64,000 nt of DNA from Escherichia coli. GTDB taxonomy: Bacteria > Pseudomonadota > Gammaproteobacteria > Enterobacterales > Enterobacteriaceae. This document shows positions 4,789 to 39,709 of this stretch, in pieces. The DNA lies in the NCBI RefSeq assembly GCF_044324785.1, contig NZ_CP172127.1, one strand, 5' to 3'. Under the pieces are notes generated by a model, which saw only the letters and a list, made by a program, of their open reading frames with translations, ran no database searches and was not told where the DNA came from. The translations under genes were made by a program, and so were the position numbers. How positions within the stretch are numbered: position 1 is the first letter of the stretch; each line of letters opens with the position of its first letter.

Positions 4789-5078
4789 ATCAATTATATA
4801 GCTACCATCGTACTGTACTATGTGCAGTACGATTTATTAAACTTATTAAGGTGAACTGATCAATCAGATGCGATTAACATGTGTAGAACCAGTAAGAATA
4901 AAATACGCCATGTATATAACATTACGACAATTCTAATATCTGCACATCAATGAAAATGCAAACAACTTCTGGCAAAAAAGTGATACAAGATCGATGACAT
5001 AGCGTTGAAGAAAAGGATTTGATAATCCGCAAAATTTGCACAACACTGCCTGTAATACTTCCTGAACCAGAGACGATC

Positions 5079-5807
5079 ATGACCGTAACCCGCCCACGCG
5101 CCGAACGCGGCGCATTTCCGCCCGGAACAGAACATTACGGACGTTCATTATTGGGCGCGCCGTTAATCTGGTTTCCTGCCCCTGCAGCCAGCCGCGAAAG
5201 TGGTTTGATTCTGGCTGGCACTCACGGTGATGAAAACTCTTCGGTCGTCACGCTCTCCTGTGCTCTGCGGACGTTGACACCTTCTTTGCGCCGTCATCAT
5301 GTGGTGCTGTGTGTAAATCCTGACGGCTGCCAGTTGGGGTTACGGGCCAATGCTAATGGTGTGGATTTAAACAGAAACTTTCCGGCGGCGAACTGGAAGG
5401 AAGGTGAAACCGTTTATCGCTGGAACAGCGCCGCTGAAGAACGTGATGTCGTTTTACTGACAGGTGACAAACCTGGCTCCGAACCTGAAACCCAGGCGCT
5501 GTGCCAGCTTATACACCGCATTCAACCTGCCTGGGTGGTCTCATTCCACGATCCACTGGCCTGTATTGAAGATCCCAGACACAGCGAATTAGGCGAATGG
5601 CTAGCCCAGGCGTTTGAATTGCCTCTGGTAACCAGCGTCGGTTATGAAACACCTGGCTCTTTCGGTAGTTGGTGTGCGGATCTCAACCTGCATTGCATAA
5701 CCGCAGAGTTTCCGCCCATCTCCTCCGACGAAGCCAGCGAAAAATATCTCTTTGCGATGGCAAACTTGCTGCGCTGGCATCCTAAAGATGCAATTCGCCC
5801 GTTGTGA
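5079..5807 (+). CDS. mpaA: Murein peptide amidase A (gamma-D-Glu-Dap amidase)
   Basis: 242 aa from the internal ATG at 5079 (MTVTRPRAERG...); the ORF-track start at 5019 is an upstream in-frame extension. Confidence 0.85.
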   Translation: MTVTRPRAERGAFPPGTEHYGRSLLGAPLIWFPAPAASRESGLILAGTHGDENSSVVTLSCALRTLTPSLRRHHVVLCVNPDGCQLGLRANANGVDLNRNFPAANWKEGETVYRWNSAAEERDVVLLTGDKPGSEPETQALCQLIHRIQPAWVVSFHDPLACIEDPRHSELGEWLAQAFELPLVTSVGYETPGSFGSWCADLNLHCITAEFPPISSDEASEKYLFAMANLLRWHPKDAIRPL

Positions 5808-25612: not shown

Positions 25613-25654
25613 TTGCCCGGATAAAGCGTTCACGCCGCATCCGGCTAAAAATGA
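25613..25654 (-). repeat. REP element
   Basis: Reverse complement reads GCCGGATGCGGCGTGAACGCTTTATCCGGGCAA. Confidence 0.75.
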
Positions 25655-25893
25655 CACGCACTGCAGCGTGCCTTAATGGGTTTCTCACGATCGTACCGCT
25701 CTGCTCCTCGCTAAGTTGTTCTGTGAGTTATAGTTATAGAGAAATCACGGGTACGAATGTTGAACAGATGGCGACGTCACCTGTTCAACGACCAACCACA
25801 CGGCCCTCATTAAGACCCCTGAACACAAACGGTAATGGCAAATGTCATTAAATATTAGTAAGATAGCCTCTTTACATAAAATCCCTTAATATT

Positions 25894-30369: not shown

Positions 30370-31176
30370 ATGATCGAAACGTTGCTTGAAGTGCGTAATT
30401 TAAGTAAAACGTTCCGCTACCGGACCGGCTGGTTTCGTCGTCAGACCGTAGAAGCGGTAAAACCCTTGAGCTTTACGCTACGTGAAGGCCAGACACTGGC
30501 GATCATTGGCGAGAATGGTTCTGGTAAATCCACGCTGGCAAAAATGCTGGCGGGAATGATAGAACCTACCAGCGGCGAGTTATTGATTGACGATCATCCG
30601 CTGCATTTTGGCGATTATTCCTTCCGCAGTCAGCGTATCCGCATGATTTTTCAGGATCCTTCGACCTCGTTGAATCCCCGTCAACGTATCTCGCAAATTC
30701 TGGATTTTCCACTGCGTCTGAACACCGATCTGGAACCTGAACAGCGTCGCAAACAGATTATTGAAACGATGCGTATGGTTGGGCTGCTACCGGATCACGT
30801 CAGTTACTATCCGCATATGTTGGCACCCGGGCAAAAACAGCGTCTGGGGCTGGCGCGCGCGCTGATATTGCGCCCAAAAGTCATTATTGCCGATGAAGCC
30901 CTCGCCTCACTGGATATGTCGATGCGTTCGCAGTTGATTAATCTGATGCTGGAGTTACAGGAAAAACAGGGCATTTCGTATATTTATGTTACCCAGCATA
31001 TCGGAATGATGAAGCACATTAGCGACCAGGTGCTGGTGATGCATCAGGGCGAGGTTGTCGAGCGAGGCAGCACCGCGGATGTGCTGGCATCGCCGCTGCA
31101 TGAACTCACCAAACGGCTTATTGCCGGTCATTTTGGCGAGGCATTGACGGCGGATGCGTGGCGTAAGGACCGTTAA
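30370..31176 (+). CDS. sapF: ABC transporter ATPase SapF
   Basis: 268 aa; Walker A GENGSGKS. Confidence 0.9.
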   Translation: MIETLLEVRNLSKTFRYRTGWFRRQTVEAVKPLSFTLREGQTLAIIGENGSGKSTLAKMLAGMIEPTSGELLIDDHPLHFGDYSFRSQRIRMIFQDPSTSLNPRQRISQILDFPLRLNTDLEPEQRRKQIIETMRMVGLLPDHVSYYPHMLAPGQKQRLGLARALILRPKVIIADEALASLDMSMRSQLINLMLELQEKQGISYIYVTQHIGMMKHISDQVLVMHQGEVVERGSTADVLASPLHELTKRLIAGHFGEALTADAWRKDR

Positions 31177-31805
31177 CAGGTTTCCTGGCTAGTACAATAT
31201 TCTTCACCGATAGCATCAGGGTCGATAAAGGGATACTCATTTTGCATAATATCCTGTAAATATTGTGCAAAATTAACAGCAATGACCTGATAGCTATCGG
31301 GATCATGTAAATAACGAACAATTTGTCCAGATTTTCCTTTTGGAGATGGAGAAAAGTCGATATATAAACGTGAAGTGCCGCCATTATTAATGCAATGAGC
31401 AAAACAGAGCCAGCGATGAAACGGTACAGTTGGATCTATACGTTCATCAACATCGACTTCGTCCATTTGCCCATCGTAGATTTTCATGATGGATTCCTGA
31501 CCAAACCATGACTTTCTTTCCTCCAAAATCTGCTGGGCAGACTGGAGATAATAGGGATATTCTCCGCCTTCAACATCCGCCCCTAAAACGGGTAAAAATA
31601 CCTTTTTATCCTGATGTTGTTGAAAATAAGTTCCCTTGATCTGGCGAAGCAAACCGAGTAAATCCTCCGAAGAATCAGGATATTCATGGAGAAGTTCTGT
31701 TATATCGCTTTCTTGCGCTCCAGACAGTGTTGCAAATAATGCCCTGACATCCGTTGGCAAATGTGCGGCAAGCCCGGCCAAATATTCCTGATACATTGTC
31801 ATCAT
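31173..31805 (-). CDS. Hypothetical 210-aa protein, low-GC; possibly SUKH/SMI1-KNR4-like
   Basis: Convergent with sapF, stop codons overlapping; visibly AT-rich against the surrounding DNA. Family assignment is a guess from the C-terminal NNGGTSRLYIDFSP...GQIV pattern. Confidence 0.5.
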   Translation of the reverse strand: MMTMYQEYLAGLAAHLPTDVRALFATLSGAQESDITELLHEYPDSSEDLLGLLRQIKGTYFQQHQDKKVFLPVLGADVEGGEYPYYLQSAQQILEERKSWFGQESIMKIYDGQMDEVDVDERIDPTVPFHRWLCFAHCINNGGTSRLYIDFSPSPKGKSGQIVRYLHDPDSYQVIAVNFAQYLQDIMQNEYPFIDPDAIGEEYCTSQETC

Positions 31806-31999
31806 AACGTCCTTTTTTAATCCATAATGAACAGCGTGTTTTGACTGTTTTTCTTAACAAAAGTTCCTGCTGTGCAACGCTCTGGCTCTTTAGTCCTTTC
31901 GTCGCTTATAATAGCTTTTTTCGGTCTTCCTCTTTCTCAAGAGAAAAGCTGCCTGATGTACAGGCACTGAAACGAGTATCAACAATAAGGATTAAAGCT

Positions 32000-39441: not shown

Positions 39442-39709
39442 CCATTTCCCTTCTCTACGGATGATTTGCTGTTTTGCAAATCATCCGCTCTAAGATGATT
39501 CCTGGTTGATAATTAAGACTATTTACCTGTTATTAACACTCTCAAGATATAAAATTATTATCAGCGATATAACAGGAAGTCATTATCACCTGCGTGATAT
39601 AACCCTGCGCGCGAGCGGATTTCACGGAATAATTTCACCAGGCTTATTCTTAGCTATTATAGTTATAGAGAGCTTACTTCCGTGAATCATAAATTCAGGA
39701 GAGAGTATT

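Follow-up and report, generated by a model that had tools for sequence, protein, structure and literature searches.

The locus analyzed here raises the question of whether an identical 15-mer, TTATAGTTATAGAGA, located upstream of both sapA and osmB in Escherichia coli, is a control element that the two genes have in common or a coincidence between two promoters. The whole stretch of DNA that was analyzed (referred to here as the window) is a 64-kb part of the E. coli chromosome that runs opposite to the K-12 map at 1.34 to 1.39 Mb, and its genes are arranged in the order puu, ymjA, sapABCDF, ycjD, fabI, yciW, rnb, pdeR, yciT, osmB. The initial annotation had pointed out the identical word near sapA and osmB, and this was confirmed: the window has just two exact occurrences of the 15-mer, at 25728-25742 and 39657-39671, both on the plus strand. 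With up to three mismatches allowed, no third site appeared in the window, where these two sites compare with 0.52 expected. The first copy lies in the spacer between ymjA and sapA, 152 to 166 nt 5′ of the sapA ATG (25894), while the second lies in the spacer between yciT and osmB, 39 to 53 nt 5′ of the osmB ATG (39710). Both copies are also present in K-12 MG1655. The sequences flanking the two copies show no similarity to each other, with the identity ending abruptly on both sides. A dispersed repeat or mobile element was rejected as the source of the word, given that there is no similarity beyond the core word and that the sapA 55-mer and the osmB 56-mer each occur at a median of one place per genome among E. 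coli records.

The two copies had been described as promoter proximal, and they turned out to be more than that, since each one is the −10, discriminator, and start-site core of a mapped promoter. Upstream of sapA, the following features define this core:

25728..25742, plus strand: sapA copy of the 15-mer, an exact match that forms the core of the distal sapA promoter (−13 to +2) and corresponds to K-12 positions 1357276..1357262 on the minus strand
25729..25734, plus strand: −10 hexamer TATAGT of the distal sapA promoter, at −12 to −7 from the mapped start
25741, plus strand: start of the sapA-sapB-sapC transcript at a G, the 14th base of the 15-mer, taken from published start maps and giving a 153-nt leader

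The start was found in two public data sets. SMRT-Cappable-seq reports a transcription start site at position 1357263 on the reverse strand of NC_000913.3 for b1294/b1293/b1292 (PMC6131387, Suppl. Data 2). Differential RNA sequencing (dRNA-seq) contains a TAP-enriched class II site, RVS_(II)-1355288 in U00096.2 coordinates (PMC4681348), which, with an offset of 1975-1976 nt calibrated on the fabI start, converts to the same base or its neighbor, i.e., to within 1 nt. Further sapA transcripts come from a start 23 nt 5′ of the ATG and from ymjA read-through. A consensus scan at the sapA copy returned no match to a σ70-type site or to a −35 partner; the hexamer found at the 17-bp spacer position upstream of the −10 box is CCTCGC. 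The distal sapA promoter probably uses σ70, because its start was detected in growing cells (M9/rich medium).

Upstream of osmB, the 15-mer falls into the promoter osmBp2, which has the following parts:

39657..39671, plus strand: osmB copy of the 15-mer, an exact match that forms the core of osmBp2 and aligns with CTATACTTAAAGAG in other genera
39658..39663, plus strand: −10 hexamer TATAGT of osmBp2, found by the promoter scan, with TATACT in the same columns of the orthologues
39634..39639, plus strand: weak −35-like TTCACC of osmBp2 at an 18-bp spacer, from the scan match TTCACC-18-TATAGT (39634..39663)
39669..39670, plus strand: start of osmBp2 at bases 13/14 of the 15-mer, 41/40 nt from the start codon and at about 1343368 in K-12

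This promoter is reportedly the σS-dependent, osmotically and stationary-phase-induced promoter of osmB, as the work of Jung from 1990 and of Boulanger from 2005 is said to describe. The osmB copy is that known promoter, without any difference, whereas at sapA the word belongs to a different promoter, for which no σS dependence has been reported. For K-12, RegulonDB v10.5 lists two osmB starts, at 41 and 148 nt before the start codon, and Cappable-seq of strain EDL933 gave starts at 147, 40, and 17 nt (both in PMC10469882, Suppl. 6); the starts of ymjA and fabI served to check the convention behind these distances. In vitro, EσS transcribes the osmB promoter region preferentially (PMC3141248). 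SELEX with RpoD yielded peaks in both spacers, which were assigned to other hexamer pairs (PMC3946193).

The hexamer TATAGT agrees in both copies with the −10 consensus TATAAT at five of six positions, including the A at position 2 and the T at position 6. Both copies are read in one register, with T at −13, TATAGT at −12 to −7, an A+T-rich discriminator TATAGA, and the start at A13/G14, and the mapped 5′ end lies 6 to 8 nt 3′ of the −10 hexamer in both according to the published data sets. At either site, RNA polymerase would open the DNA at the −10 box and initiate about 7 nt downstream. The same sequence implies the same start point, so that the shared register is not independent evidence for a common regulator.

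How unusual the match is depends on the DNA with which it is compared. The initial annotation had considered one such match to be about what chance predicts, and this is true for the window as a whole, in which direct repeats account for 10 15-mers at 8 places, two of which extend to 16 bases. Shuffling the entire window with its dinucleotides preserved gave 3.0 ± 2.2 repeated 15-mers, with at least one in 90% of the shuffles. When only the ∼8.8 kb outside long open reading frames was considered, however, a shared direct 15-mer was present in just 5% of the shuffles. A match confined to noncoding DNA is therefore mildly unusual per window, and by extrapolation several such pairs would be expected per genome. 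According to a rough estimate, it should be rare for any given pair of real promoters to be identical over the entire 15 bases between −13 and +2. The value of 0.00 expected occurrences for TTATAGTTATAGAGA is the null for one prespecified word and is not the relevant null here.

Conservation in the orthologous sapA and osmB promoters, by which the initial annotation had proposed to judge the word, was checked and not found: the 15-mer is not conserved in related species and also varies within E. coli. The comparison covered 80 Enterobacteriaceae loci centered on rnb and reaching 10 kb to either side (∼1.6 Mb), which include both spacers. None of these 80 loci contains the exact pair of TTATAGTTATAGAGA, both copies occurring together only in E. 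coli K-12, and outside Escherichia the 80 loci lack even one exact copy. With up to one mismatch allowed, no occurrence was found in the ∼1.6 Mb beyond the osmB site. Another Escherichia species cluster is represented by locus L003, which has only the osmB copy, and further Escherichia relatives are one base off at osmB, with TTATAGTTAAAGAGA in L002 and TTATAGTTATAGAAA (ending in GAAA) in L077.

The alignments point to separate origins for the two copies. At osmB, the word aligns base for base with a strongly conserved (A/G/T)CTATACTTAAAGAG, a classic σS-type −10 region, in nearly all genera (∼50 other Enterobacteriaceae), from which the E. coli form is distinguished by T at −13, G at −8, and T at −4; the G at −8 is also present in Salmonella and a few others. 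An ancestral σS-type core, CTATA(C/G)TTAAAGAG, would have gained the Escherichia-specific changes C>T at −13 and A>T at −4. At sapA, the copy is restricted to Escherichia in the sapA alignment. Citrobacter has the weakly similar GAGTATAT(T/G)CAAAG at this position, and in most other genera a different gene lies upstream of sapA. The copy at sapA is built on a (TTATAG)n mini-repeat (25728-25739 in the window), which probably arose by slippage, with duplication of a TTATAG unit.

Within E. coli, the sapA 55-mer is identical in 4,323 of 5,421 records and different in 1,096 (∼20%), and the osmB 56-mer is identical in 4,742 of 5,422 records and different in 680 (13%). The mini-repeat at sapA has one, two, or three units among the sampled strains, with a three-unit form, TTATAGTTATAGTTATAAAGA, in strain YP3 and a one-unit form, TTATAGAGA, in strain DETEC-S565; these mini-repeat variants were seen in the E. 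coli strains of loci L082, L083, and L090. In addition, five sampled strains have the substitution G12>A at sapA (TTATAGTTATAAAGA), and the E69 cluster has a 1-bp deletion. At osmB, strain CFSAN061768 has A13>T, and two further strains are changed outside the word. Strain CU37RT-2 carries the G12>A form at sapA (TTATAGTTATAAAGA), yet its osmB copy is unchanged, showing that the two copies do not change together. The sapA copy resembles slipped-strand promoter repeats in being a (TTATAG)2 sequence with one- and three-unit strains, where a change in unit number shifts the −10 box relative to the downstream sequence, but it differs from them in that it has just one to three units, with rare alleles that are each found in a single genome.

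The match itself, both start sites, the absence of conservation, and the separate variation of the copies were all observed directly. We consider it very likely that the two sites are unrelated core promoters of the σ70 family that have become identical from −13 to +2 by chance convergence in most E. coli. Rather than marking a control element common to both genes, their identity is coincidental, of recent date, and variable among strains, which makes the finding an ordinary one. Nothing about it is new in kind, given that osmBp2 was known and the distal sapA start was already contained in public high-throughput maps. Its value is that of an example of unrelated promoters converging on one −13 to +2 core, and of a caution that short exact matches between A+T-rich upstream regions should not be taken as regulatory motifs.

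An alternative that we regard as improbable is that the 15-mer is a shared regulatory element, either the operator of one transcription factor or a core variant with a common response to σS, osmotic conditions, or supercoiling. If true, it would couple putrescine export by SapBCDF to the osmotically induced lipoprotein OsmB. Although the two sites both work as promoter cores, and in one register, and the noncoding-only null gives a P value of ∼0.05, orthologous promoters do not conserve the word, the window holds it only twice, and E. coli strains vary freely in it, even in unit number, without the copies changing together. The σS dependence and osmotic induction of osmBp2 would fit a common σS response, but the E. 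coli copy is without the σS-favored C at −13 that is found in the orthologues. The σS-type extended −10 consensus is approximately KCTAYRCTTAA (Hengge and Landini laboratories). Orthologues of the osmB copy match it near perfectly at the aligned columns (CTATACTTAA), whereas the E. coli 15-mer carries T where the consensus has C (−13) and TAT where it has TAA (−6 to −4); the sapA copy departs from the consensus in the same way, and no sapA orthologue has the σS form. The σS-selective sequence features (C at −13 and TAA at −6 to −4) are therefore present in neither E. coli copy. SELEX with the RpoS holoenzyme produced a peak in the osmB-yciT spacer, while sapA has no entry in the list or text (PMC5493296).

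The same alternative might draw on the physiology of the sap genes, since the SapC and SapF proteins go up after a water-activity downshift in O157 and SapBCDF is annotated as a putrescine exporter in K-12 RefSeq. Against a common osmotic regulator, the Reg-Seq osmotic-activator motif resembles an RcsB half-site, and sapA is unmentioned within the searched part of the Reg-Seq text; on these two grounds, both YciT and the Reg-Seq osmotic activator were rejected as common regulators. Least probable is common descent of the two copies, whether by a small duplication, by gene conversion, or as the remnant of a repeat or mobile element, and the orthologue alignments contradict it. The exact, same-strand identity and a REP-like element nearby, between ymjA and sapA, could be quoted in its favor, but the identity stops abruptly at both ends with dissimilar flanks, the osmB copy can be aligned base for base to an ancient promoter of ∼50 genera, a 6-base unit duplicated in place accounts for the copy at sapA, and the REP element includes neither site.

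According to the initial annotation, each copy is followed by a CACGG/CCGTG element. The two pentamers are indeed present, but they differ in offset and are opposite in orientation, and their pairing is coincidental. The features concerned are as follows:

25746..25750, plus strand: CACGG, 4 nt after the sapA copy, at +6 to +10 of the leader
39621..39629, plus strand: TTCACGGAA, 5′ arm of a long-range helix, at −49 to −41 of osmBp2
39678..39686, plus strand: TTCCGTGAA (contains CCGTG), 3′ arm of the long-range helix or 5′ arm of a hairpin covering the Shine-Dalgarno sequence

The pentamer downstream of sapA is kept in Escherichia but not in Citrobacter, which has TAGCGGG/TAGCAGG. Its reverse complement, CCGTG, is located at 39680-39684, 9 nt after the osmB copy. 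A common CACGG/CCGTG element was rejected on account of the different offsets (+4 versus +9 nt), the opposite orientations, and the position of the osmB pentamer within a conserved helix.

In this helix, TTCCGTGAA is complementary to TTCACGGAA over 9 bp, with the 3′ arm at +9 to +17 of osmBp2. Across 55 distinct orthologous Enterobacteriaceae sequences, the nine pairs are 93.7% paired, and there are 17 double-sided changes versus 3.9 in column shuffles, a number that none of 500 shuffles reached. The column pair 47-107, for example, is CG in 42 sequences, UA in 10, and UG in 3 and is never unpaired. Pairing was lost when the partner was slid, and the core of the helix was the only consensus structure predicted by unguided RNAalifold. 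Since the arms bracket osmBp2, only the P1 transcripts, which start 148 nt from the ATG, contain both of them, and a single-sequence fold of the P1 leader forms the helix. The P2 leader is short, and its predicted fold has the 3′ arm in a local hairpin (39678-39701) with the Shine-Dalgarno GGAG; this hairpin is conserved, without covariation. No match to Rfam or known RNA families was found between 25000 and 40500, and the sapA and osmB leaders fold no better than shuffled sequences (z about −1 to −1.5).

A tentative model for osmB, which we hold to be possible but not the likelier case, is that of a promoter-specific leader switch, in which the promoter that fires, Rcs-dependent P1 or σS-dependent P2, would decide whether the Shine-Dalgarno sequence is masked. 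The 15-mer would have no part in such a switch beyond sitting inside the loop. Two sequences 5′ of the P1 start (∼39562), TAAGATGATTCCTGG (39491-39505) and TAAGACTATTTACCT (39514-39528), look like RcsB boxes and are putative sites of this kind; the second of them (39514-39528) is centered near −41 of P1. In E. coli OkiPb01684 (L094), an IS1 element (IS1A) is found at or directly upstream of the osmBp2 −10 box (equivalent to ∼39650-39660), so that P1, the 5′ helix arm, and all else upstream of the osmBp2 core are replaced.

The sapA side has structures of its own. An inverted repeat (CGTACC at 25692-25697 and GGTACG at 25750-25755) that seems to parallel the osmB helix was put down to chance; the E69 cluster keeps its downstream arm only. 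Within the long leader of sapA, a nearly perfect palindrome or hairpin of 31 nt, TTGAACAGATGGCGACGTCACCTGTTCAA, spans 25759-25789 (+19 to +49 of the distal start); B2-like alleles change three of its positions without clear compensation. A second, small hairpin is located at 25833-25850. Between ymjA and the distal sapA promoter, a REP-like palindromic element of the GCCGGATGCGGCGTGAACGCTTTATCCGGGCA family is accompanied by a terminator-like hairpin on the minus strand (25614-25646 and 25653-25672).

The gene content around the two spacers varies as well. In five sampled E. coli strains (L082-L085 and L087), an island with a TetR-regulated RND/MFS efflux gene set lies between sapF and fabI and replaces ycjD (31170-31810 in the window). 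The puu cluster between pspF and ymjA is missing in L082-L085 and kept in L087.

Elsewhere in the window, the segments 961-995 and 4951-4986 share AAATGCAAACAACTTC, followed by 3 mismatches and CAAAAAAGTGA, so that ∼30 of 35 bases agree. The first copy lies upstream of mppA (minus strand, ATG near 906) and the second upstream of mpaA (ATG near 5079), two murein-peptide recycling genes that flank the gene for the LysR regulator pgrR/ycjZ. This match is far beyond chance and probably represents a common cis element of the recycling genes, and it is more promising in this respect than the 15-mer of sapA and osmB.
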